Sequence record: PZ452578.1
Origin: a phage
Reading direction: 5' to 3' (one strand)
DNA length: 64,000 nucleotides
A program made the translations under genes and the position numbers. Shown here piece after piece: positions 33-28,062 of this stretch; the first letter of the stretch is position 1, and every line of letters begins with the position of its first letter. Below the pieces are notes generated by a model, which did not search any database, had not been told where the DNA came from, and saw only the letters and a list, made by a program, of their open reading frames with translations.

Positions 33-2012
33 ATGACTTTATTATCTCCGGGCATTGAGCTCAAAGAAACTACGGTTCAAAGCACCGTGGTTAATAACTC
101 TACTGGTACAGCAGCTTTGGCCGGTAAATTCCAGTGGGGTCCTGCTTTTCAGATTAAACAGGTTACAAATGAAGTAGATTTAGTTAATACTTTTGGTCAA
201 CCAACCGCTGAAACTGCTGACTATTTTATGTCTGCGATGAATTTCTTGCAGTACGGAAATGACTTACGAGTAGTTCGTGCTGTTGATAGAGATACCGCTA
301 AAAACTCATCTCCGATTGCTGGTAATATTGAATACACAATTTCTACCCCAGGTAGTAACTATGCAGTTGGAGATAAAATCACGGTCAAATATGTTTCGGA
401 TGATATTGAAACTGAAGGTAAAATTACTGAAGTAGACGCAGATGGAAAAATTAAGAAAATTAATATTCCTACTGCAAAAATTATCGCTAAAGCTAAAGAA
501 GTCGGTGAATATCCGGAATTAGGTTCTAACTGGACTGCGGAAATTTCTTCGTCTTCCTCTGGTTTAGCTGCAGTAATAACTCTTGGAAAAATTATTACTG
601 ATTCTGGTATTTTATTAGCTGAAATTGAAAATGCTGAAGCTGCTATGACAGCGGTTGACTTTCAAGCAAATCTCGAAAAATACGGAATTCCAGGAGTAGT
701 AGCTCTTTATCCAGGCGAATTAGGCGATAAAATTGAAATTGAAATCGTATCTAAAGCTGACTACGCAAAAGGAGCTTCTGCATTACTGCCAATTTATCCA
801 GGTGGTGGTACTCGTGCATCTACTGCTAAAGCAGTGTTTGGATATGGACCACAAACTGATTCACAGTACGCTATTATAGTTCGTCGTAATGATGCTATTG
901 TTCAAAGTGTTGTTCTTTCAACTAAGCGTGGTGAAAAAGATATTTACGATAGTAACATTTATATCGATGACTTTTTCGCAAAAGGCGGTTCAGAATATAT
1001 TTTCGCAACTGCACAAAACTGGCCAGAAGGATTCTCTGGAATTTTAACTCTGTCTGGTGGATTATCATCAAATGCTGAAGTAACAGCAGGAGATTTGATG
1101 GAAGCCTGGGACTTCTTTGCTGACCGTGAATCTGTTGACGTTCAGTTGTTTATTGCGGGTTCTTGTGCCGGTGAATCTTTAGAAACAGCATCTACTGTCC
1201 AAAAACACGTCGTTTCAATTGGGGATGCTCGCCAGGATTGCTTAGTATTGTGCTCACCACCGCGTGAAACTGTAGTTGGAATTCCTGTAACTCGCGCTGT
1301 TGACAACTTAGTCAACTGGAGAACCGCAACAGGTTCATACACTGATAATAACTTTAATATCAGTTCAACCTATGCAGCAATTGATGGTAACTACAAATAT
1401 CAGTATGACAAATACAATGATGTCAATCGCTGGGTTCCATTAGCAGCTGATATTGCCGGTTTATGTGCAAGAACCGATAACGTTTCTCAGACTTGGATGT
1501 CTCCAGCTGGTTATAATCGCGGCCAGATTCTTAACGTTATTAAACTTGCTATTGAAACTCGCCAAGCTCAGCGCGACCGTTTATACCAAGAAGCTATCAA
1601 CCCAGTGACTGGTACAGGTGGTGATGGTTACGTATTATATGGTGATAAAACAGCTACTTCTGTTCCTTCTCCATTTGATCGTATTAACGTTCGTCGTCTG
1701 TTTAATATGTTGAAAACGAATATCGGACGTAGTTCAAAATATCGTTTGTTCGAATTAAACAACGCGTTTACTCGTTCATCATTCCGCACAGAAACTGCCC
1801 AATACTTACAGGGAATTAAAGCTCTCGGTGGAATTTATGAATATCGTGTAGTTTGCGATACAACAAATAACACTCCGTCAGTAATTGATAGAAATGAGTT
1901 TGTTGCAACATTCTACATCCAACCAGCTAGAAGCATTAACTACATTACCTTAAACTTCGTAGCAACTGCTACTGGTGCAGATTTCGATGAGTTAACTGGT
2001 CTTGCAGGTTAA
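33..2012 (+). CDS. 18: Tail sheath protein gp18
   Basis: 659 aa, same length as T4 gp18 and N-terminus MTLLSPGIELKETTVQS recognised; sits directly upstream of tail tube gene 19. Confidence 0.93.
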   Translation: MTLLSPGIELKETTVQSTVVNNSTGTAALAGKFQWGPAFQIKQVTNEVDLVNTFGQPTAETADYFMSAMNFLQYGNDLRVVRAVDRDTAKNSSPIAGNIEYTISTPGSNYAVGDKITVKYVSDDIETEGKITEVDADGKIKKINIPTAKIIAKAKEVGEYPELGSNWTAEISSSSSGLAAVITLGKIITDSGILLAEIENAEAAMTAVDFQANLEKYGIPGVVALYPGELGDKIEIEIVSKADYAKGASALLPIYPGGGTRASTAKAVFGYGPQTDSQYAIIVRRNDAIVQSVVLSTKRGEKDIYDSNIYIDDFFAKGGSEYIFATAQNWPEGFSGILTLSGGLSSNAEVTAGDLMEAWDFFADRESVDVQLFIAGSCAGESLETASTVQKHVVSIGDARQDCLVLCSPPRETVVGIPVTRAVDNLVNWRTATGSYTDNNFNISSTYAAIDGNYKYQYDKYNDVNRWVPLAADIAGLCARTDNVSQTWMSPAGYNRGQILNVIKLAIETRQAQRDRLYQEAINPVTGTGGDGYVLYGDKTATSVPSPFDRINVRRLFNMLKTNIGRSSKYRLFELNNAFTRSSFRTETAQYLQGIKALGGIYEYRVVCDTTNNTPSVIDRNEFVATFYIQPARSINYITLNFVATATGADFDELTGLAG

Positions 2013-2028
2013 TACGGTGCATTCTAAA

Positions 2029-2046
2029 GGCCTGTTTCGGCAGGCC
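2029..2046 (+). terminator. Hairpin after gene 18 (GGCCTG-loop-CAGGCC)
   Basis: Inverted repeat immediately 3' of the gene 18 stop; no clear U-tract, late promoter follows. Confidence 0.4.
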
Positions 2047-2047
2047 A

Positions 2048-2055
2048 TATAAATA
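2048..2055 (+). promoter_or_regulatory. T4-type late promoter TATAAATA
   Basis: Exact TATAAATA octamer in the 18-19 intergenic region. Confidence 0.55.
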
Positions 2056-2106
2056 CACTATATCCTTAATTCTTTAATTCTATATGCCCTAGGTTAAACA
2101 TAGGGA

Positions 2107-2114
2107 TATAAATA
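2107..2114 (+). promoter_or_regulatory. T4-type late promoter TATAAATA for gene 19
   Basis: Exact TATAAATA 15 nt upstream of the gene 19 ATG at 2129. Confidence 0.65.
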
Positions 2115-2128
2115 CTACAGAGGCTAAT

Positions 2129-2620
2129 ATGTTTGTAGATGATGTAACACGAGCGTTTGAATCTGGTGATTTTGCTCGACCTAACTTATTCCAAGTAGAA
2201 ATTTCTTATCTTGGACAAAATTTTACGTTTCAATGTAAAGCTACTGCTCTACCAGCTGGTATTGTAGAAAAAATTCCAGTCGGATTTATGAACCGTAAAA
2301 TTAACGTAGCAGGCGATCGTACATTCGATGACTGGACTGTTACAGTAATGAACGATGAAGCTCATGATGCTCGCCAGAAGTTCGTTGATTGGCAAAGCAT
2401 TGCTGCGGGGCAAGGAAACGAAATTACTGGTGGAAAACCTGCAGAGTATAAAAAGAGCGCTATCGTTCGTCAATATGCTCGTGATGCTAAAACAGTAACA
2501 AAAGAAATTGAAATTAAAGGTCTGTGGCCTACTAACGTGGGTGAACTTCAATTAGATTGGGATTCAAACAATGAAATCCAAACATTTGAAGTAACTCTTG
2601 CTCTCGATTATTGGGAATAA
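2129..2620 (+). CDS. 19: Tail tube protein gp19
   Basis: 163 aa, T4 gp19 length and sequence recognised; follows gene 18. Confidence 0.93.
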   Translation: MFVDDVTRAFESGDFARPNLFQVEISYLGQNFTFQCKATALPAGIVEKIPVGFMNRKINVAGDRTFDDWTVTVMNDEAHDARQKFVDWQSIAAGQGNEITGGKPAEYKKSAIVRQYARDAKTVTKEIEIKGLWPTNVGELQLDWDSNNEIQTFEVTLALDYWE

Positions 2621-2625
2621 AATGA

Positions 2626-4277
<1,652 letters not shown>

Positions 4278-4278
<1 letters not shown>

Positions 4279-4526
4279 TGGAAGGTTTAATTGAAGCTAT
4301 TAAATCAAACGACCTCGTAGCCGCTCGTAAATTATTTGCTGAGGCCATGGCTGCAAGAACGATTGATTTAATTAAAGAAGAAAAAATCGCTATCGCTCGT
4401 AATTTCTTAATCGAAGGTGAAGAACCCGATGACGAGGATGATGACGAAGACGAAGATAGTGATGATAAAGACGACAAAAAAGACAAAGACTCTGATGAAG
4501 ATGACGAAGACGAGGATGATGAATAA
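4278..4526 (+). CDS. 67: Prohead core protein gp67 with acidic D/E-rich C-terminus
   Basis: 82 aa; start overlaps the gene 20 stop; C-terminal run of Asp/Glu; position between 20 and 68. Confidence 0.85.
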
Positions 4527-4951
4527 TGCTTCTGATCCCTGAAACTCATGAATTAGTTCTCGAGAATGTCGAAGCACTTATTCCTGAAGCACAGGGTCGC
4601 TTTGACGAATTGTCTTCTGCTTTAAATAAAGACGATATAAATACAATTGTCGAGAATATGCTTGATGATGAAACTGATTTAGCGGTTGCATTAGCTTCTA
4701 TTAATGAAAATATGCCGTTAAATGAATTCATCGTTAAACATGTTTCCGCCCGTGGTGAAATTACTCGCACTAAAGACCGCAAAACGCGTGAACGTAATGC
4801 ATTTCAAACCACTGGGCTGTCTAAAGCAAAACGTAGACAAATTGCTCGTAAAGCTACCAAAACGAAGATTGCCAATCCAGCAGGTCAATCTCGTGCTCAG
4901 CGTAAGCGTAAAAAAGCTCTTAAACGCCGTAAAGCATTAGGATTAAGCTAA
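4526..4951 (+). CDS. 68: Prohead core protein gp68
   Basis: 141 aa, basic C-terminus, synteny 67-68-21. Confidence 0.85.
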
Positions 4952-5589
4952 TGAATGAACCCCAATTACTAATTGAAACTTGGGGTCAACCTGGCGAAAT
5001 TATTGATGGCGTGCCAATGCTTGAATCTCATGATGGAAAAGACTTAGGTTTAAAACCGGGTTTATACATCGAAGGAATATTCATGCAAGCGGAAGTCGTC
5101 AATAGAAATAAACGTCTTTATCCAAAACGTATATTAGAAAAAGCGGTAAAAGACTATATTAATGAGCAAGTTTTAACTAAACAAGCTCTCGGAGAATTAA
5201 ATCATCCTCCACGCGCTAATGTTGACCCGATGCAAGCCGCTATCATTATAGAAGATATGTGGTGGAAAGGAAATGACGTATACGGACGAGCTCGTGTTAT
5301 TGAAGGTGACCATGGTCCTGGAGATAAATTAGCAGCTAATATTCGTGCCGGATGGATTCCAGGAGTTTCTTCTCGTGGATTAGGTTCATTGACTGACACA
5401 AATAAAGGTTATCGTATCGTAAACGAAGGATTCAAATTAACTGTAGGTGTTGATGCAGTATGGGGTCCAAGTGCTCCAGATGCATGGGTAACTCCTAAGG
5501 AAATTACCGAATCACAGACGGCGGAAGCCGATACAAGTGCCGATGACGCCTATATGGCTCTCGCAGAGGCCATGAAAAAAGCGTTATAA
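4951..5589 (+). CDS. 21: Prohead core scaffold protein and protease gp21
   Basis: 212 aa, T4 gp21 length; position upstream of 22 and 23. Confidence 0.9.
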   Translation: MNEPQLLIETWGQPGEIIDGVPMLESHDGKDLGLKPGLYIEGIFMQAEVVNRNKRLYPKRILEKAVKDYINEQVLTKQALGELNHPPRANVDPMQAAIIIEDMWWKGNDVYGRARVIEGDHGPGDKLAANIRAGWIPGVSSRGLGSLTDTNKGYRIVNEGFKLTVGVDAVWGPSAPDAWVTPKEITESQTAEADTSADDAYMALAEAMKKAL

Positions 5590-5592
5590 ATA
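5585..5592 (+). promoter_or_regulatory. T4-type late promoter TATAAATA for gene 22
   Basis: Exact octamer overlapping the gene 21 stop, about 28 nt upstream of the gene 22 ATG. Confidence 0.6.
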
Positions 5593-5619
5593 TTATTATC
5601 TAAACAACAGGACTACAAA

Positions 5620-6429
5620 ATGCTTAAAGAACAACTGATTGCCGAAGCGCAGAAAATTGATGCTTCCGTTGCTCTTGATAGTATTTTCGAATCAGTTAAT
5701 ATTTCTCCGGAAGCAAAAGAAACTTTCGGCACTGTATTCGAAGCTACCGTCAAGCAGCACGCCGTTAAATTAGCTGAATCTCATATCGCTAAAATTGCTG
5801 AAAAAGCAGAAGAAGAAGTAGAAAAAAATAAAGAAGAAGCCGAAGAAAAAGCTGAGAAGAAAATCGCTGAGCAAGCTTCTAAATTCATTGACCATCTTGC
5901 AAAAGAATGGCTCGCTGAAAATAAATTAGCAGTTGATAAAGGCATCAAAGCCGAACTGTTTGAATCCATGCTTGGTGGATTAAAAGAGCTCTTTGTTGAA
6001 CACAACGTTGTTGTTCCAGAAGAATCAGTTGATGTTGTAGCTGAAATGGAAGAAGAGCTGCAAGAACATAAAGAAGAATCAGCTCGTCTGTTCGAAGAAC
6101 TCAATATGCGCGACGCATATATCAATTATGTGCAGCGTGAAGTGGCATTGAGCGAAAGTACTAAAGATCTGACTGAGTCTCAAAAAGAAAAAGTCTCTGC
6201 TCTGGTCGAAGGTATGGATTATTCAGATGCATTCTCAAGTAAATTGAGTGCAATCGTAGAAATGGTGAAGAAATCTAATAAAGATGAAAGCACTATTACT
6301 GAGAGTATAAATACTCCTGATACTGAAGCAGCCGGACTGAATTTCGTCACTGAAGCTGTAGAAGATAAAGCTGCACAGGGTGCAGAAGATATTGTAAGTG
6401 TATATGCGAAAGTCGCATCTCGTTTCTAA
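5620..6429 (+). CDS. 22: Prohead core scaffold protein gp22
   Basis: 269 aa, E/K-rich helical scaffold-like sequence, directly upstream of 23. Confidence 0.9.
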   Translation: MLKEQLIAEAQKIDASVALDSIFESVNISPEAKETFGTVFEATVKQHAVKLAESHIAKIAEKAEEEVEKNKEEAEEKAEKKIAEQASKFIDHLAKEWLAENKLAVDKGIKAELFESMLGGLKELFVEHNVVVPEESVDVVAEMEEELQEHKEESARLFEELNMRDAYINYVQREVALSESTKDLTESQKEKVSALVEGMDYSDAFSSKLSAIVEMVKKSNKDESTITESINTPDTEAAGLNFVTEAVEDKAAQGAEDIVSVYAKVASRF

Positions 6430-6447
6430 TTTTAAAGGTTAACACAA

Positions 6448-8013
6448 ATGACTATCAAAACTAAAGCTGAACTTTTGAACAAATGGAAGCCATTACTGGA
6501 AGGTGAAGGTTTACCGGAAATTGCTAATAGCAAACAAGCGATTATCGCTAAAATCTTTGAAAACCAGGAAAAAGATTTCCAGACAGCTCCGGAATATAAA
6601 GACGAAAAAATTGCTCAGGCATTCGGTTCTTTCTTAACAGAAGCTGAAATCGGTGGTGACCACGGTTACAATGCTACCAACATCGCTGCAGGTCAGACTT
6701 CTGGCGCAGTAACTCAGATTGGCCCAGCTGTTATGGGTATGGTACGTCGTGCTATTCCTAACCTGATTGCTTTCGATATTTGTGGTGTTCAGCCGATGAA
6801 CAGCCCGACTGGCCAGGTATTCGCACTGCGTGCAGTATATGGTAAAGATCCGGTGGCTGCTGGTGCTAAAGAAGCTTTCCACCCAATGTATGGTCCAGAT
6901 GCAATGTTCTCTGGTCAGGGTGCTGCTAAGAAATTCGCTGCTTTGAAAGCAAGTGATACTCTTGAAGTCGGAACTATTTACACCCACTTCTTCCAGGAAA
7001 CTGGTACCGTATATCTGCAAGCTACAGAAGTTAAGCAAATTGATACTAGTGCAACTGACGCAGCTAAATTAGATGCTGAAATTAAGAAACAAATGGAAGC
7101 TGGTGTACTGGTAGAAATCGCTGAAGGTATGGCTACTTCTATCGCTGAACTCCAGGAAAGTTTCAACGGTTCTACCGATAACCCATGGAATGAAATGGGC
7201 TTCCGTATCGATAAACAAGTTATCGAAGCTAAATCTCGCCAGCTGAAAGCTGCTTACTCTATTGAATTAGCACAAGACCTCCGCGCTGTTCACGGTATGG
7301 ATGCTGATGCTGAACTGTCTGGTATTCTGGCTACAGAAATTATGCTGGAAATCAACCGTGAAGTTGTTGATTGGATTAACTACTCAGCTCAGGTTGGTAA
7401 ATCTGGTATGACCCTGACTCCGGGTTCTAAAGCTGGTGTATTTGACTTCCAGGACCCAATCGATATTCGTGGTGCTCGCTGGGCAGGTGAATCCTTTAAA
7501 GCTCTGTTGTTCCAGATTGACAAAGAAGCAGTTGAAATTGCTCGTCAGACCGGTCGTGGTGAAGGTAACTTCATTATCGCTTCCCGTAACGTAGTTAACG
7601 TTCTGGCTTCAGTTGATACCGGCATTTCTTATGCTGCACAGGGTCTGGCTACCGGCTTTAACACTGATACTACCAAGTCAGTATTTGCTGGTGTTCTGGG
7701 TGGTAAATACCGCGTATATATCGACCAGTATGCTAAACAGGATTATTTCACTGTAGGTTATAAAGGTCCGAACGAAATGGATGCTGGTATTTACTATGCT
7801 CCATATGTAGCTCTGACTCCGCTGCGTGGTTCCGATCCGAAGAACTTCCAACCGGTAATGGGATTCAAAACTCGTTACGGTATCGGTATCAACCCATTTG
7901 CAGAATCCGCTGCTCAGGCTCCGGCTTCTCGCATCCAGAGCGGTATGCCTTCTATTCTGAATAGCCTTGGTAAAAACGCTTACTTCCGCCGTGTATATGT
8001 TAAAGGTATCTAA
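6448..8013 (+). CDS. 23: Major capsid protein gp23
   Basis: 521 aa; N-terminus MTIKTKAELLNKWKPLLEGEGLPEIANSKQ recognised as T4 gp23. Confidence 0.95.
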   Translation: MTIKTKAELLNKWKPLLEGEGLPEIANSKQAIIAKIFENQEKDFQTAPEYKDEKIAQAFGSFLTEAEIGGDHGYNATNIAAGQTSGAVTQIGPAVMGMVRRAIPNLIAFDICGVQPMNSPTGQVFALRAVYGKDPVAAGAKEAFHPMYGPDAMFSGQGAAKKFAALKASDTLEVGTIYTHFFQETGTVYLQATEVKQIDTSATDAAKLDAEIKKQMEAGVLVEIAEGMATSIAELQESFNGSTDNPWNEMGFRIDKQVIEAKSRQLKAAYSIELAQDLRAVHGMDADAELSGILATEIMLEINREVVDWINYSAQVGKSGMTLTPGSKAGVFDFQDPIDIRGARWAGESFKALLFQIDKEAVEIARQTGRGEGNFIIASRNVVNVLASVDTGISYAAQGLATGFNTDTTKSVFAGVLGGKYRVYIDQYAKQDYFTVGYKGPNEMDAGIYYAPYVALTPLRGSDPKNFQPVMGFKTRYGIGINPFAESAAQAPASRIQSGMPSILNSLGKNAYFRRVYVKGI

Positions 8014-23287: not shown

Positions 23288-23291
23288 CAAT

Positions 23292-23320
23292 GGGGACCTT
23301 TCGGTCCCCATATTTTTATT
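23292..23320. terminator. Bidirectional terminator between gene 54 (+) and the 96 aa minus-strand ORF
   Basis: GGGGACC-TTTC-GGTCCCC hairpin with T-rich flank. Confidence 0.8.
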
Positions 23321-23606
23321 TACGGAATGAAATGAAAGCAGAAACTGAAGCAACTAAACTGTCTTCAATATAAACTTCAATTTTTACCGGAGCTTCTGAC
23401 TCAAATTTACCTGTTACTACACCCTGAAAAATACTTTCAGTTTGTTCTGGCTTTGAAAAATTTTCAGAAGGAAAAATTCCGAACTTTTTATCTGTTCCAA
23501 AAATTTTAATAAATTCATCGTAAACTGCTTCATTAAAAGCATTATCAGCAGGAATAACGCCTTCAACTACAAGTTCTTGACCTAAAAAGCGCAAAGAAGA
23601 TTTCAT
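23316..23606 (-). CDS. Hypothetical early protein
   Basis: 96 aa ORF with a GAGGAA RBS, directly downstream of an early promoter. Confidence 0.75.
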   Translation of the reverse strand: MKSSLRFLGQELVVEGVIPADNAFNEAVYDEFIKIFGTDKKFGIFPSENFSKPEQTESIFQGVVTGKFESEAPVKIEVYIEDSLVASVSAFISFRK

Positions 23607-23635: not shown

Positions 23636-23667
23636 CTACTATAACACAACATAAGGGACTTGTAAAC
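23636..23667 (-). promoter_or_regulatory. Sigma70-like early promoter (-35 TTTACA, 17 bp spacer, -10 TATAGT)
   Basis: Read on the minus strand as GTTTACA...TATAGT; promoter plus leader nearly identical to the copy at 39134-39191. Confidence 0.7.
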
Positions 23668-25724
23668 TACATTTTGAACTTTTTAGACATTCCGTTGATG
23701 TTAACCAAAGAAGCCAAGATTTGAGAAACTTCGTTTTCCTCTTCTTTTGATTCTTCTACAAGAAATTGATTAAATCCAGCCATTGGACGAACTTCACCAG
23801 TTTCCATTAAATGGTCGCCATCATATACCGATTCCTCTAATTGTTCAGAAGGAGGAACGATTGTACCTTCGATTAGATACTTGTTATAAGCAGTTTCTTT
23901 CATAAAGTACGTACTTACTTTATTAATCTTCAGTAAAATTCCACGCGGTAGAATAACTTCAGCTTCTGATGGAAATCCTGATAAATGACCTGGAACGATA
24001 ACTTTGATTCGCTCAGCTCCTTTAATTACCATACCCACGCTAGTTTCAGCATCTTCATTAGCATATGTAGAATGACTACCCATATGCATCAAATCTTCTG
24101 CGTCAACTGAACCTTCTCCTTCACCAGAAAATACTGCGCCGGAATCATCTAGAGCCATATAGTTTTTACCATGCTCACCGAAGATATTTGGTTTAAGAGA
24201 TGTGGATACGAAGTTCTTGAAATAGAACATTTTGTTTTCAATGTTATGACGCAAAGTTTTAAAGGTAACTTCTTGTCCGCGATAAAGCGTAGTTCCTGGA
24301 GGAAGAACTGAACCTTTAGCGAATGCAGAATCCAACGTCTCGATGTTCTTAATAGCTCGTTCCATATATTCTTCACGGGTAGAATCTGGTTTACCCAAAA
24401 GGAACGAGTTCATTTCAACATATGAATCTGCACAATAATCTTCAATTACATCAGATTCGGCCTGAGTCAGTCCTTTTGGAGTTACTTCAGTGCTTGCGTA
24501 TTCATATGCCTGGGCAGCAGATTCATTAATCAATTTATAAATGCCATTCATTACAAATTGAATAATAGCTGTCTTTTCATCTGGCGTAGCTTTAGAACCT
24601 TTAACCAAATCATTGATAATTTTCTTAATAACATCAAAGCTATTAGAAATATTAATATCAGCAAGATCGCTTAAAATTTTATCAGTTTTATAATCAAAGA
24701 ATTCTTTATTCTTTAAATATTCTTGAGAACCTTGATATGTTATATCGCTCTGCAACTTGATAGATGGATCACGTAAACGTGCATGGGCCAATGCAATATG
24801 ATTTCGGAAGTTTTCTAGTTCATAATCGCTAGATTTAAAACGAGAAGCACTCCTCATACCACCGATAGCTCCTTTGCTAAAGTTTGAACCAATCTGGATA
24901 ACCCCGGAGTTCATCGGACCTTCTGCTTTATATACCGGAACTTTAGATTCAAACTCTTGATATTTCTTAGCAGCGAAGCTATCACCCTGAAGTGAAGCAT
25001 CAACAGTAGAATATTGAGCTTGTGCTGCTAATCGACGACTAATTTTAGTTTTCTGAATAACAGCTTGGTCAGTACGTTTATCATTTTCTAAAGCAATAGA
25101 AGCAGCAACAGCAACAGCTTTAGGAACAGCATTACCTGTTTTAACATCTACATAAACATCACCAACCTTTGATTCAACTTTTGTGAATAACTCAGTTGAA
25201 ATAGGAGGTACACCTGGAATGTCTTCTAAATTGGCATTTTTACGGTAAACCATAATATATGCATACTTTTTATCATAGTCCCAGATTTCCTTTAAAAGAA
25301 CATATCGACCTGCTCCTTTAGTACGTACTAAACGGTCAGCAATAACTTGCATTTGACGAGCTGCGCCATTTGTTTTACTTTTTAGTACGCGGAATAAGCA
25401 TGCGTCAATTTTATACTGCTTCATTGTTTGAAGAGCAGTATCAAAAACAGCGTTAATGACGCCAATTGGATTTCCACCCAAGTTTCTAAGCTTAACCAGC
25501 GATAATTTCTCGTTGACACCTATCATTACGATATGCATCATTTTATCGCCTGGCTTAACGTTTTTATTCGTATCACCGCCAGAGGTGTATGTACAAAATC
25601 TAAATCCAGGAAGCACGCTTTCTTCGCCGGCTTGAATAGCAAAAATTTGTGGTATTTTATGCTTAGGATTTAAGTTAACAACCGGCGCCGAAGCGCCGTC
25701 AAATAATTCTGTAATAAGTTCCAT
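23667..25724 (-). CDS. Alt-family ADP-ribosyltransferase, downstream copy
   Basis: 685 aa; N-terminal 230 aa closely matches the adjacent 698 aa paralog; C-terminal half has R (LYRGQ), STS (FVSTSL) and catalytic E (SEAEVILPRG) motifs of R-S-E ARTs. Confidence 0.85.
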   Translation of the reverse strand: MELITELFDGASAPVVNLNPKHKIPQIFAIQAGEESVLPGFRFCTYTSGGDTNKNVKPGDKMMHIVMIGVNEKLSLVKLRNLGGNPIGVINAVFDTALQTMKQYKIDACLFRVLKSKTNGAARQMQVIADRLVRTKGAGRYVLLKEIWDYDKKYAYIMVYRKNANLEDIPGVPPISTELFTKVESKVGDVYVDVKTGNAVPKAVAVAASIALENDKRTDQAVIQKTKISRRLAAQAQYSTVDASLQGDSFAAKKYQEFESKVPVYKAEGPMNSGVIQIGSNFSKGAIGGMRSASRFKSSDYELENFRNHIALAHARLRDPSIKLQSDITYQGSQEYLKNKEFFDYKTDKILSDLADINISNSFDVIKKIINDLVKGSKATPDEKTAIIQFVMNGIYKLINESAAQAYEYASTEVTPKGLTQAESDVIEDYCADSYVEMNSFLLGKPDSTREEYMERAIKNIETLDSAFAKGSVLPPGTTLYRGQEVTFKTLRHNIENKMFYFKNFVSTSLKPNIFGEHGKNYMALDDSGAVFSGEGEGSVDAEDLMHMGSHSTYANEDAETSVGMVIKGAERIKVIVPGHLSGFPSEAEVILPRGILLKINKVSTYFMKETAYNKYLIEGTIVPPSEQLEESVYDGDHLMETGEVRPMAGFNQFLVEESKEEENEVSQILASLVNINGMSKKFKM

Positions 25725-25727
25725 GAT

Positions 25728-27824
25728 TTATCCTTGAACGAACTTGTAAGGTATGTTTGTAATATCTATGCAAGACGCAATAATTCCAAGAGATGATTCT
25801 ACTTTCTGTTTAACATTTGATGAAACAAATGATGCAAAGTCAACTCTGCCTTCTATTTCAATATCACCTGTCATTGCAACTACTTCGCCGGTTTCCATTA
25901 AACGGTCACCGTCATAAATTACCGATTCGGTGAGTTCTTCGGTGGTCATAACTTCAGCTTGAATGAGTTTTGTATTATTAGACGTGGTTCCGTCATTATT
26001 AGAAGCATCAGTTATTTTATTAACTTTGACCATCAATCCGCGCGGCAGAATAACTTCGGCTTCTGTTGCTATTCCGAGACTTCCTGGATATACAACATTA
26101 ACTTTATGAGCTCCATCAATTGCCCATCCTATTTGAACTTTAACGTATTCAGGATTTTCTTTATACGCTCTTATTTCGTTTGGATTAATAGTTATTCCTT
26201 CTTCATTTTTATCAACTGTTAATTCATTGCGAGCTTCTGGTTCTAAAAGACCAATACCAGCATGTGTAATTCCAAAACGTCCAAAAATGATAGGAGTTAA
26301 AGAAGTAGATACAAAATTTCTGAAATAGAACACTTTATTTTTAACTAGTGCTTCGTATATAGGAGCAGTCATACTTTGAGCACGATAAACTGTAATGCCT
26401 TCCGGTATGCGGTCACCATTTTCAAAAGCTGAATCTAAATTATTTATAGCAGATTCAATTTCTTTTTCACTCATTACATCATATCGTTCTGGATTGTAAC
26501 GACCTAAAAGAAGATTATTAATGTCTGTATATCCTGAACCACAATATTCTCTAATGCCGCGCTTTTGTGATGGAGTATATTTAGAACCATCACGGGCAAT
26601 AGTAATATCAATCATTGGACCTGCACCAATTCCAGAAAAGCTATAAATCATTCGTTTGAGGAATTTAGTTTTTGCTGCATTCCAGGCATTTTTAGTTATT
26701 TCTCCCCAGACTTCATCTGGTTGCCCTTTACGAGTTTTATTATGTTTATCAAGCCAATTATCTTTATATTCTTCAAAGAATTTATTAACAGCTGCTGCGT
26801 ATTTCTCTAAACATTTTATTGAAGTAGTTGGCTCATTTTTTATCGCATTGAGAATTACATCTTTAATTTTTTCAGAAACTTCATCAACCTCACTTTTTGA
26901 AAAGAATTTATAGTCATAGTGAAGTTCATTCGCAGTTCCTTCGGCAATAATTTTTGCTGCCTTAGTTTTAGAAGCTAATGAATTAATTCCAAGCTTCATT
27001 TCTTCTGCTTCGGGAATTAAAGGAGCGGTAGCAGGTTTATTGAAATTAGCTGCGGTAGATTCATACTTCTGGAATAATTCACTTTCAAATCTAGAAGATT
27101 CCAATGATTGACTTTGCGCAATTGCTCTACGGGAAATTTTAACTTTAACGATTACAGCTTGGTCAGAACGTTTATCATTTTCTTGCGCAATAGATGCTGC
27201 AATTGCCTCATTTTTAGTTACTTGGGCTCCAGTATCTTTATTGATATAAACATCACCGACCTTCGATTCAACTTTAGTAAAGAGCTCGGTACTAATTTCC
27301 GGAACTCCTGGAATGTCTTCTAGTGATACATTTTTACGATGTATAAGAATATATGCATACTTTTTATCATAATCCCAGAGTTCCTTAAGAAGGACGTATC
27401 TGCCACCTGAACGACTACGGATAAGTCTATCAGCAATAACTTGAATTTGTCGAGCTTGGCCAGCAGTTTTAGACTTAAGAATACGAAGCATACAAGCATC
27501 AATTTTATACTGACGCATCGTTTGCATTGCAACAGTAAAAACTGAATTGATATAATTAATTGGGCTTGGACCAAGACCTTTTAATTTAGCAATTGAACCT
27601 TTAGCAGTTAATGTAAAAGGAACAATATGCATCATTTTATCGCCCATCTTTAAATCGCGATTAGTATCACCTCCAGATGTATAGGTACATAAACGAAAGC
27701 CTGGTTGTTCAATTGCATCATCAACATGAACTGAAAAAATTTGCGGTATTTTCTTCTTTGGATTTAAGTTTGTAATCGGAAGAGTAGTATCTTCGTCAAA
27801 TAATTCTGTAATAAGTTCCATCAT
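25728..27824 (-). CDS. alt: Alt ADP-ribosyltransferase, upstream copy
   Basis: 698 aa; N-terminus MMELITELFDEDTTLPITNLNPKK; motifs VYRAQ, FVSTSL, TEAEVILPRG; 3 nt from the downstream paralog. Confidence 0.88.
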   Translation of the reverse strand: MMELITELFDEDTTLPITNLNPKKKIPQIFSVHVDDAIEQPGFRLCTYTSGGDTNRDLKMGDKMMHIVPFTLTAKGSIAKLKGLGPSPINYINSVFTVAMQTMRQYKIDACMLRILKSKTAGQARQIQVIADRLIRSRSGGRYVLLKELWDYDKKYAYILIHRKNVSLEDIPGVPEISTELFTKVESKVGDVYINKDTGAQVTKNEAIAASIAQENDKRSDQAVIVKVKISRRAIAQSQSLESSRFESELFQKYESTAANFNKPATAPLIPEAEEMKLGINSLASKTKAAKIIAEGTANELHYDYKFFSKSEVDEVSEKIKDVILNAIKNEPTTSIKCLEKYAAAVNKFFEEYKDNWLDKHNKTRKGQPDEVWGEITKNAWNAAKTKFLKRMIYSFSGIGAGPMIDITIARDGSKYTPSQKRGIREYCGSGYTDINNLLLGRYNPERYDVMSEKEIESAINNLDSAFENGDRIPEGITVYRAQSMTAPIYEALVKNKVFYFRNFVSTSLTPIIFGRFGITHAGIGLLEPEARNELTVDKNEEGITINPNEIRAYKENPEYVKVQIGWAIDGAHKVNVVYPGSLGIATEAEVILPRGLMVKVNKITDASNNDGTTSNNTKLIQAEVMTTEELTESVIYDGDRLMETGEVVAMTGDIEIEGRVDFASFVSSNVKQKVESSLGIIASCIDITNIPYKFVQG

Positions 27825-27845
27825 AGCCTCTCTAGTGTTTATTCT

Positions 27846-27853
27846 ATTTATAA
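27846..27853 (-). promoter_or_regulatory. T4-type late promoter TATAAATA upstream of alt
   Basis: Minus strand reads TTTTATAAATAGAATAAACACTAGAGAGGCT ATG; sits just after a terminator hairpin. Confidence 0.6.
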
Positions 27854-27858
27854 AATTA

Positions 27859-27878
27859 AAGGCCCGAAGGCCTTTAAT
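27859..27878 (-). terminator. Terminator hairpin after the 62 aa ORF / gene 30 operon
   Basis: AAAGGCC-CGAA-GGCCTTT palindromic hairpin directly 3' of the stop at 27874, followed by T-rich sequence. Confidence 0.7.
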
Positions 27879-28062
27879 AATCTAGTGGTAAGAGAGTACG
27901 GTATATTTCAAACTTTGGACCTTTTTCATAGGCATCAAATGTTTCTGTGAATTTATTATAAGCATATGCATCTACAAATTCGAGAATGACTTGTGATACA
28001 GAAGTAGAAACATCTCCACCTTCTTTTTGAGCAATGACAATTGTTTCTAAGTAAGCTTTCAT
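27874..28062 (-). CDS. Hypothetical protein
   Basis: 62 aa ORF whose start overlaps the gene 30 stop. Confidence 0.65.
   Translation of the reverse strand: MKAYLETIVIAQKEGGDVSTSVSQVILEFVDAYAYNKFTETFDAYEKGPKFEIYRTLLPLDY

Follow-up and report, generated by a model that had tools for sequence, protein, structure and literature searches.

Does the alt locus of a T-even phage supply one injected ADP-ribosyltransferase or two, and would a second enzyme act on other host proteins? The question is raised by a 64,000-nucleotide stretch of phage DNA (sequence record PZ452578.1; hereafter the window), on the minus strand of which two Alt-family genes, alt and then a full-length alt.-2, are separated by a gap of 3 nt. 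The window alt is the positional orthologue of the gene for T4 Alt (NP_049811.1), a head-packaged, injected NAD:arginine mono-ADP-ribosyltransferase.

Organization of the alt locus

The genes and their signals lie at the following positions:

25728..27821, minus strand: alt, 697 aa from the second ATG (maximal ORF 25728..27824, start 27824, 698 aa)
23667..25724, minus strand: full-length alt.-2, 685 aa
27858..27875, minus strand: GC-rich hairpin aaaggccttcgggccttt, then a T-rich stretch (aatttt), overlapping the alt.1 stop; read from sequence
27845..27852, minus strand: T4-type late promoter TATAAATA, 21 nt 5' of the first alt ATG
27827..27830, minus strand: Shine-Dalgarno GAGG of alt; read from sequence
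25725..25735, minus strand: alt/alt.-2 junction (AAGGA 25731-25735, TAA 25728-25730, spacer 25725-25727)
23638..23666, minus strand: sigma-70-like promoter TTTACA-17-TATAGT with TG extension, right after the alt.-2 stop, serving alt.-3

A sequence-only reading of the window had described two tandem minus-strand ORFs of 698 and 685 aa, 3 nt apart, and these were recovered at 25728..27824 and 23667..25724 with the spacer at 25725-25727. The late promoter and ribosome binding site that it placed upstream of the first gene were also found (TATAAATA at 27845-27852 and GAGG at 27827-27830), but its 698-aa start for alt is probably one codon too far upstream. GAGG lies 2 nt from the first alt ATG and 5 nt from the second (27821), and Alt is probably a protein of 697 aa, because the second ATG is better spaced and is the start annotated in RB32 and T4. 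The promoter sequence TATAAATA has 19 matches across the window versus 8.6 by chance, including a second one inside alt (26441-26448). The hairpin is likely a terminator shielding alt from early transcription upstream, and phage Merlin has an annotated terminator at the equivalent position.

The Shine-Dalgarno sequence of alt.-2, AAGGA, sits within the final alt codons, and the arrangement of AAGGA, TAA and a 3-nt spacer suggests that alt and alt.-2 are co-transcribed and that alt.-2 translation is coupled. The sigma-70-like promoter marks the 3' boundary of the alt/alt.-2 unit. The position of the locus, between gene 30/alt.1 and alt.-3/gene 54 and behind a late promoter, is conserved.

Domain architecture and catalytic residues

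Alt and Alt.-2 are 41% identical by BLASTP (E 5e-157), and this identity is unevenly distributed. The closely matching N-terminal 230 or so residues of the sequence-only reading were borne out by pairwise alignment (∼65 to 68% identity over about residues 1-237/240), whereas the helical middle region (241-415) is ∼17% and the catalytic domain (416-640) ∼34% identical. The C-terminal ∼55 to 65 residues, absent from that reading, are likewise conserved. The domains and catalytic motifs are placed as follows:

25728..27821, minus strand: Alt layout, comprising propeptide MELITE, N-domain, middle, ART domain and a 65-aa acidic C-propeptide
26382-26384, minus strand: Alt R480 (Y-R), catalytic motif
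26301-26309, minus strand: Alt S505-T-S507, catalytic motif
26055-26063, minus strand: Alt E587-A-E589, catalytic motif
25014-25706, minus strand: Alt.-2 N-domain, aa 7-237
24480-25013, minus strand: Alt.-2 helical middle domain, aa 238-415
23850-24479, minus strand: Alt.-2 ART domain, aa 416-625
24279-24281, minus strand: Alt.-2 R482 (Y-R), catalytic motif
24198-24206, minus strand: Alt.-2 S507-T-S509, catalytic motif
23958-23966, minus strand: Alt.-2 E587-A-E589, catalytic motif

The claim that both proteins keep R / S-T-S / E-x-E within divergent C-terminal halves therefore stands, with the motifs intact in ART domains of ∼34% identity. The three motifs do not vary across a 17-sequence alignment and, in both proteins, line up with those of CDTa. 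The profile search proposed earlier placed both proteins above the curated cut-off of Pfam PF03496 (ADPrib_exo_Tox; 23.4 bits), Alt with 128.8 bits (2e-37) and Alt.-2 with 72.4 bits (4e-20). Both match PHROG 802 at full length (Alt 1-697, E 7.5e-273; Alt.-2 1-685, E 6.6e-256), and PF26846 (“Tevenvirinae_ADPRT”), covering the N-domain, is on record for close homologues; no NCBIfam model was found for either.

Both proteins have the ART fold of R-S-E mono-ADP-ribosyltransferases, and the predicted fold of Alt.-2 matches arginine-specific R-S-E toxins. In the AF2 model of Alt.-2, pLDDT falls below 50 in the 516-540 loop, the most divergent loop. A search of solved structures found no Alt-family member and no convincing counterpart of the N-terminal and middle domains of Alt or Alt.-2. 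The C2/C3-like R-S-E toxins (Vis, iota Ia, CDTa, VIP2, and C3bot) share the catalytic fold and the R / STS / ExE residues with the Alt proteins but are only ∼17 to 25% identical to them, and they are delivered by a pore-forming B component or by secretion rather than by ejection from a phage head. ModA and ModB of T4 are R-S-E ARTs of the same clade in the same phages (PMC5512222). Unlike Alt, they are single-domain early proteins of ∼200 aa that are not packaged and have neither N-domain nor propeptides. Together, these data support the view that both genes are full-length Alt-family members with a shared N-domain and divergent but catalytically intact ART domains, for which activity is predicted.

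Predicted prohead protease processing

In T4, the prohead protease gp21 cuts Alt at ITE-6 and LTE-619 to give a 68.2-kDa protein (PMC5694885), a mass reproduced by recalculation. It takes off a 6-residue N-propeptide and a 63-residue C-propeptide, which may serve in targeting, tethering or regulation of activity, and the N-domain of ∼230 aa is retained after maturation. Both points qualify the packaging or targeting role suggested for the shared N-terminal module in the sequence-only reading. Both motif positions are kept in Alt and Alt.-2, predicting cleavage at equivalent sites:

N-terminus of alt, minus strand: Alt N-propeptide MELITE, cleavage motif ITE-6 (T4 sites, PMC5694885)
25926-25934, minus strand: predicted gp21 site LTE-632 of Alt, by alignment to T4 Alt, followed by the 65-aa acidic C-propeptide
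N-terminus of alt.-2, minus strand: Alt.-2 N-propeptide MELITE, motif ITE-6, identical to that of Alt
23832-23840, minus strand: predicted gp21 site LEE-631 of Alt.-2, aligned just before the YDGD landmark
23670-23831, minus strand: predicted C-propeptide of Alt.-2, 54 aa

Since L-x-E tripeptides are frequent (7 to 10 per protein), conservation of the sites is judged from their alignment position and not from the rarity of the motif. Homologous L-x-E sites occur in Alt and Alt.-2, and 11 of 12 homologues examined in other phages have them too; as exceptions, Alt of Krischvirus Phi1 lacks YDGD, and Aeromonas Gom_c lacks L/I-x-E directly before YDGD. The tail YDGDxLMETGE ... KF is common to Alt and Alt.-2.

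Distribution of alt.-2 and its deletion in T4

Two “Alt-like” genes are annotated in RB32, RB27, T2, T6, and hundreds more Tequatrovirus records. The window alt.-2 corresponds to RB32 alt.-2 (YP_803136.1) and to the second “Alt-like RNA polymerase ADP-ribosyltransferase” of RB27, T2, T6, and Sf22 (685 aa, ∼98% nucleotide identity, same position). Copy number across T-even genomes, a comparison that the sequence-only reading had called for, is one plus a remnant in T4 and two in most other Tequatroviruses. Full-length alt.-2 was present in 402 of 499 matching records, and 403 records carry an Alt.-2 ART domain of 95% identity or more; T4 and ∼97 related records keep only the first 348 nt. The two-gene Alt locus is the ordinary Tequatrovirus arrangement and already annotated, and the finding is correct but not new. 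Positional orthologues of alt.-2 are kept in Dhakavirus and Moonvirus (QL01 gp198, 57% identical in the ART domain; Merlin gp219, 47%). Copy number at the locus ranges from 1 to 3 across genera, and QL01 has a three-gene array with 3-nt spacers as in the window.

Every domain of alt.-2 has a dN/dS of 0.02 to 0.04, with 40 to 89 synonymous versus 3 to 10 nonsynonymous differences per pair, and the gene is therefore under strong purifying selection.

The deletion in T4 is bounded by a direct repeat:

25377..25385, minus strand: upstream copy of the 9-bp direct repeat CTAAAAAGT, joined to the downstream copy by the T4 deletion
23678..23686, minus strand: downstream copy of CTAAAAAGT, in the final alt.-2 codons

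T4 alt.-1 and alt.-2 (NP_049810.1 and NP_049809.1) are homologous to the first 116 codons of the window alt.-2 (94% nucleotide identity). T4 lacks the 1,699 bp between the repeat copies, which hold the remaining N-domain, the middle domain and the entire ART domain, and has a frameshift from a 1-nt deletion within an A-run. Judged from the sequences, T4 is the derived state, in which the CTAAAAAGT-repeat deletion and the frameshift left the alt.-1/alt.-2 stubs. In the RB32 record, the difference from T4 is read as an “apparent insertion in alt.-2”; the present comparison instead indicates a deletion on the T4 side.

Cassette exchange

Compared with T4 Alt, window Alt has the same gp21 sites, late promoter context and neighbors (alt.1 and gene 30), an N-domain of about 100% identity and a C-terminal tail of 92% identity, but it carries a different allele of an internal cassette (ART domain 68% and middle 33% identical in amino acids; E-A-E in place of the T4 E-M-E):

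25882..27122, minus strand: exchangeable middle-plus-ART cassette of alt, about aa 234-646, by nucleotide identity comparison

Nucleotide identity to T4 alt is only 40 to 76% in the cassette and 87 to 99% in its flanks. Against Dhakavirus QL01 gp200, the middle part (from about aa 238) is 61 to 77% and the ART part (about aa 418-624) 83 to 93% identical in nucleotides, and the two ART domains share 94% of their amino acids against a neighboring-gene background of 37 to 68%. On clustering, N-domains group by phage genus, whereas middle-plus-catalytic cassettes group across genera. Natural single-gene alt/alt.-2 hybrids were found, e.g., in Yersinia phage PST; the only cassette is that of Alt in T4 and that of Alt.-2 in PST and contig L010. 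It is conceivable, and we propose it tentatively, that the Alt locus is a modular effector array. The propeptide, N-domain, and C-terminal propeptide would then form a delivery scaffold specific to each lineage, on which middle-plus-ART cassettes are interchangeable. Recombination in the conserved flanking sequences would swap the cassettes between genera and between tandem paralogues, and those of the Alt.-2 lineage would hit host targets distinct from those of T4 Alt.

Recent gene conversion of the N-domain could account for the clustering of N-domains by genome but is not supported in this phage, as nucleotide identity there is ∼55 to 80% and third codon positions are close to saturation; alt and alt.-2 are identical over the first 28 nt only. 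Apparent insertions in alt of ECO07P3, SA20RB, and Some were BLAST pieces joined over paralogous N termini, and ECO07P3 has the normal two genes. A search for other cargo domains with the N-domain alone gave 6 matches only. The “N-domain-only” proteins P0001, P0002, and P0005 have no further Pfam domain and so provide no evidence for non-ART cargo on the N-domain carrier; they resemble truncated Alt genes or contig-end fragments.

Function of Alt.-2

We consider it reasonably probable that this is an ordinary two-gene Tequatrovirus Alt locus whose products are both packaged, injected arginine ADP-ribosyltransferases, likely with differing targets. Purifying selection and retention of both gp21 sites make a second packaged, injected arginine ADP-ribosyltransferase the most likely identity of Alt.-2, although we infer packaging and injection solely from the conserved cleavage motifs and architecture. 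Both genes lie behind one late promoter, alt.-2 with its own Shine-Dalgarno sequence, and the products share a layout of 6-residue propeptide, family-specific N-domain, helical middle, R-S-E (C2/C3-toxin-like) ART and acidic C-terminal tail. By extension from T4 Alt, both would be synthesized late and incorporated into the prohead core, trimmed by gp21 after ITE-6 in each and after LTE-632 in Alt or LEE-631 in Alt.-2, and would enter with the DNA to mono-ADP-ribosylate host-protein arginines in the first moments of infection. On this view, the duplication is older than the divergence of Tequatrovirus from Dhakavirus and Moonvirus, and most of alt.-2 was later deleted in T4; middle-plus-ART cassettes move between genera and paralogues, and the N-domain stays with the phage lineage.

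In related toxins, the STS-ExE loops set substrate choice and the ExE motif is linked to arginine specificity. Retention of ExE in both paralogues implies the same type of acceptor residue. The two middle domains show no sequence relationship and the STS-ExE loops share almost no residues, and the substrate range of Alt.-2 therefore likely differs from that of Alt, a part of the scheme that we put forward with lower confidence. Two injected enzymes with different substrates, as suggested by the sequence-only reading, would fit these loop differences, the conserved gp21 sites and the low dN/dS. Only T4 Alt is known to ADP-ribosylate RNA polymerase alpha (at Arg265) and further host proteins (PMC9503650, PMC5512222). 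A literature search yielded neither virion proteomics nor an activity assay or target list for Alt.-2, and full-text searches for “alt.-2” or a second Alt returned only a comparative-genomics mention (Nolan et al. 2006) and no functional study.

The common ExE, N-domain and tails, and the ability of natural phages to cope with one cassette (that of Alt in T4, that of Alt.-2 in PST and contig L010), could indicate a redundant or dosage copy, packaged, active and raising dose or robustness against the same targets as Alt, such as Arg265 of RNA polymerase alpha. This is unlikely: ART domains are 34% and middle domains ∼17% identical, and the two catalytic lineages have remained separate, under strong purifying selection, in three genera or more, where redundancy should permit loss or homogenization. 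It is similarly doubtful that Alt.-2 and cassette swapping serve mainly counter-defense, with a host immunity or toxin-antitoxin protein as the target and an arms race driving turnover, a proposal that overlaps with the preferred one. T4 Alt reportedly modifies the MazF toxin, CmdTAC escape mutants arise in the neighboring gene alt.-3, genera differ in copy number (1 to 3), and ART cassettes are exchangeable, one being 94% identical to that of a Dhakavirus while neighboring genes are at 37 to 68%. Furthermore, viral ARTs have been described as fast-evolving conflict proteins (PMC9503650). Nevertheless, the Alt.-2 ART domain is nearly invariant in Tequatrovirus (at least 95% identity in 403 records; dN/dS about 0.03), which is not the pattern of diversifying selection.

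The internal TATAAATA at 26441-26448 could allow separate expression of an Alt.-2 that is made late and not delivered, acting late in the producing cell or as a nonenzymatic head-core component. However, MELITE and the first 28 nt are identical to those of alt, Alt.-2 retains the C-terminal L-x-E site and the YDGDxLMETGE ... KF tail, and the catalytic residues are invariant, none of which a nonpackaged or inactive protein would need; we regard this as quite improbable. Least credible is a decaying duplicate heading for the state of T4, as in the ∼97 further records reduced to the first 348 nt. The selection data already contradict it (dN/dS 0.02 to 0.04; 40 to 89 synonymous versus 3 to 10 nonsynonymous differences per pair), the ORF is intact in 402 records, and Dhakavirus and Moonvirus retain orthologues.

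Significance

Functional work on injected phage ADP-ribosyltransferases rests almost wholly on T4, which is atypical: a second intact, strongly conserved Alt-family enzyme is encoded by about four in five sequenced Tequatroviruses (T2 and T6 among them), and some related genera have three Alt-family genes. The targets of Alt.-2 have gone unstudied because the reference phage deleted most of the gene. Should Alt.-2 be injected and act on targets of its own, current accounts of the first minute of T-even host takeover are incomplete, and T2, T6, or RB32 would be better models than T4 in this respect. In addition, cassette exchange and the natural hybrids suggest a ready scaffold for packaging foreign enzymes in T4-type heads.

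Organization of the alt locus

The two adjacent minus-strand open reading frames (ORFs) recognized from the sequence alone, together with a late promoter and ribosome binding site 5' of the first, were confirmed at the following positions.

27858-27875 (-), GC-rich hairpin then a T-rich stretch (aatttt), 5' of alt (sequence)
27845-27852 (-), T4 late-promoter octamer TATAAATA, 5' of alt (sequence)
27827-27830 (-), GAGG, 5' of alt (sequence)
25728..27824 (-), alt, 698 aa maximal (ORF reading)
25725-25727 (-), 3-nt spacer between alt and alt.-2 (sequence)
23667..25724 (-), alt.-2, 685 aa, a full-length paralogue (ORF reading)
23638-23666 (-), sigma-70-like promoter TTTACA-17-TATAGT of alt.-3, directly 3' of the alt.-2 stop
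23316-23606 (-), alt.-3 homologue, 96 aa, DUF5498, phrog_1739

The order on the minus strand is alt.1 stop codon, hairpin, octamer, GAGG and ATGATG, and GAGG lies 2 nt ahead of the first ATG and 5 nt ahead of the second. As the second ATG is the annotated start in T4 and RB32, Alt of the window is most likely 697 aa long. AAGGA lies 6 nt 5' of the alt.-2 ATG, within the final codons of alt, and the layout of the pair would fit cotranscription and coupled translation. A second exact octamer within alt (26441-26448 [-], coding strand, ~720 nt 5' of the alt.-2 start) might serve alt.-2 as an internal late promoter or might occur there by chance. The first 28 nt, ATGGAACTTATTACAGAATTATTTGACG, are identical in alt (27794-27821 [-]) and alt.-2 (25697-25724 [-]); beyond them, nucleotide identity in the N-domain is ~55-80%, with near-saturated third positions. 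The identical stretch points to constraint on, or local conversion of, the region of the propeptide and translation start.

The upstream neighbor, alt.1 (27874-28062 [-], 62 aa), matches Pfam PF24647 ("Phage blade protein"/"Phage_blade"; E = 1.9e-29) and shares 4 nt with the end of the DNA ligase gene. Downstream, a GC-rich hairpin with a 9-bp stem (23290-23311) lies between the converging genes 54 and alt.-3 and has a terminator score on both strands. T4 mutants in which Alt.-3 is extended at its C terminus escape the CmdTAC defense by stabilizing CmdA (bioRxiv 10.1101/2024.02.24.581662).

The window is 98% identical to RB27, RB33, and RB32 and ~97.7% identical to T2 and T6, in whose records the pair is named alt and alt.-2 or two "Alt-like RNA polymerase ADP-ribosyltransferase" genes, and alt paralogues in T4, RB49, and 44RR were noted by Nolan et al. 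2006 (PMC1524935). The pair is therefore already known, both as an annotation and from the 2006 literature, and is no novel discovery. A full-text search for "alt.-2" returned only Nolan et al. 2006 as relevant, and no functional study of full-length alt.-2 was found.

Domain structure, predicted processing, and possible substrates of Alt and Alt.-2

Alt and Alt.-2 are 41% identical overall (BLASTP; E = 5e-157), but the similarity is distributed unevenly, in agreement with the closely matching N termini and differing C-terminal halves described in the sequence-only reading. Pairwise identity is 65-68% over residues 1-237, ~17% over residues ~240-415, ~34% in the catalytic region, and 35-44% over the last ~60 residues. 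In a profile search, both proteins matched the ADP-ribosyltransferase (ART) family PF03496 far above threshold, and PHROG 802 ("Alt-like RNA polymerase ADP-ribosyltransferase") covers the full length of each. The R/S-T-S/E-x-E signature ascribed to both holds on careful alignment: R480, S505-S507, and E587/E589 in Alt and R482, S507-S509, and E587/E589 in Alt.-2 align with the motifs of the toxin CDTa and are invariant across a family alignment of 17 sequences. The AlphaFold model of Alt.-2 (pLDDT 75.6, pTM 0.71) has an N-domain of alpha/beta type, a middle domain made up entirely of helices, the ART domain, and a disordered tail.

T4 Alt is present at ~40 copies in the prohead core and is injected with the DNA, and the prohead protease gp21 removes six N-terminal residues (at ITE-6) and 63 C-terminal residues (at LTE-619), leaving 68.2 kDa (PMC5694885; PMC9026906); recomputation for residues 7-619 also gave 68.2 kDa. 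Alt of the window has ITE-6 and LTE-632 motifs. Alt.-2 begins with an identical MELITE and has LEE-631 at the aligned position, immediately preceding a conserved YDGDxLMETGE motif, and its predicted mature form (residues 7-631) is 69.1 kDa. Of 12 homologues examined from five other genera, 11 have L/I-x-E followed by YDGD; exceptions are Krischvirus Phi1 Alt, without the YDGD landmark, and Aeromonas Gom_c, without L/I-x-E just before YDGD. The C-terminal end, ...ILASxxDIxxxPxKF, is recognizable, with substitutions, in all full-length homologues. Because cleavage sites, YDGD motif, and tail are conserved, Alt.-2 is likely packaged and processed by analogy with T4 Alt.

Both proteins retain E-x-E, which in related toxins is associated with specificity for arginine. 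Their helical middle domains show essentially no sequence relationship, and identity in sliding windows falls to 5-15% between S-T-S and E-x-E, the stretch in which the substrate-recognition loops of C2/C3-type toxins lie. Different target sets for Alt and Alt.-2 are plausible on these grounds, in line with the two injected enzymes of differing substrates suggested in the sequence-only reading.

Maintenance of alt.-2 and its loss in T4

Whether T-even genomes carry one or two copies, which the sequence-only reading had left open, is now answered: T4 carries a single copy plus a remnant, and two copies are found in most relatives. At the position of alt.-2, T4 has two short ORFs after alt, alt.-1 (61 aa) and alt.-2 (67 aa), which the T4 annotation derives from an old duplication of the initial portion of alt. 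When aligned with the window, T4 lacks 1 nt of an A-run, a deletion that separates alt.-1 from alt.-2, as well as 1,699 bp of alt.-2, with the 9-bp direct repeat CTAAAAAGT at the junction; window alt.-2 has this repeat at 25377-25385 and 23678-23686. Of 499 matching phage records, 402 have full-length alt.-2 (≥80% coverage; 94-98% nucleotide identity), and among the matches listed, nearly all partial ones, including T4 and RB59, are limited to the first 348 nt, always with the same end point. Outgroup genera have full-length Alt-family genes at the same position, adjoining alt.-3, and the Alt.-2 ART domain is 57% and 47% identical to its positional counterparts in Dhakavirus QL01 (gp198) and Moonvirus Merlin (gp219), respectively. 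The note in the RB32 record describes instead an "insertion" in alt.-2, which is less parsimonious given the repeat-flanked T4 deletion and the outgroup genes. Because of the record census, the repeat junction, and the full-length outgroup genes, a deletion in the T4 lineage is the more parsimonious explanation, and T4 would represent the derived state.

Among four phages, pairwise dN/dS of alt.-2 is 0.02-0.04 (40-89 synonymous versus 3-10 nonsynonymous differences per pair) and similarly low in the N-domain, middle domain, ART domain, and tail. In 403 records the ART domain has ≥95% identity, and none of the matches falls at 60-95%. These comparisons indicate that alt.-2 is being maintained.

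Modular evolution of the Alt family

Alt-family gene number by phage group
Mosigvirus: 1
Krischvirus: 1 and a short ORF with only an ART
Moonvirus and most Tequatrovirus: 2
Dhakavirus QL01: 3, spaced by 3 nt as in the window
Aeromonas phage: 3

The three tandem full-length genes of QL01 (637-6897 of locus L003; 694, 681, and 707 aa) are exactly 3 nt apart, and the middle one, gp199, represents a third ART lineage, sharing ≤42% identity with the ART of any other full-length homologue in the comparison. In domain-wise identity matrices, N-domains group by genome (68% between window alt and alt.-2, 67-89% among the three QL01 genes, and 42-47% between window and QL01), whereas ART domains group by lineage across genera. 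The ART of window Alt is 94% identical to that of QL01 gp200 versus only 68% to that of T4 Alt. In DNA comparisons with T4, window alt shows 94-99% identity across nt 1-715, 87-98% across the final ~220 nt, and 40-76% between these conserved ends; its ART part (~aa 418-624) is 83-93% identical to QL01. As neighboring genes of the window and QL01 share only 37-68% protein identity, the ART cassette has been transferred between Tequatrovirus and Dhakavirus in relatively recent times. Tequatrovirus itself has at least two Alt alleles, the window/T2 type, with full coverage in 316 records, and the T4 type, which matches window alt at the ends only; further Alt lineages are found among metagenomic proteins.

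Two database proteins join an Alt-type N terminus to an Alt.-2 cassette. One, on a 65-kb contig (L010, 5001-7055), is the sole alt gene between alt.1 and alt.-3, with a clean crossover at ~nt 540. Yersinia phage PST likewise has a single "alt" of 686 aa (3501-5561 of locus L011), with a crossover at ~nt 300. In both of these genes, the Alt.-2 portion comprises the middle, ART, and tail. L010 is a short-read contig, for which an assembly artifact is possible in principle, but PST, a complete isolate genome, crosses over at a point of its own. Both look like products of unequal crossover between tandem paralogues, and, as the crossovers differ, they appear to be independent collapses of a two-gene array. 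T4 and the hybrids together show that a phage can lose one or the other catalytic cassette, which is consistent with alt being nonessential in T4.
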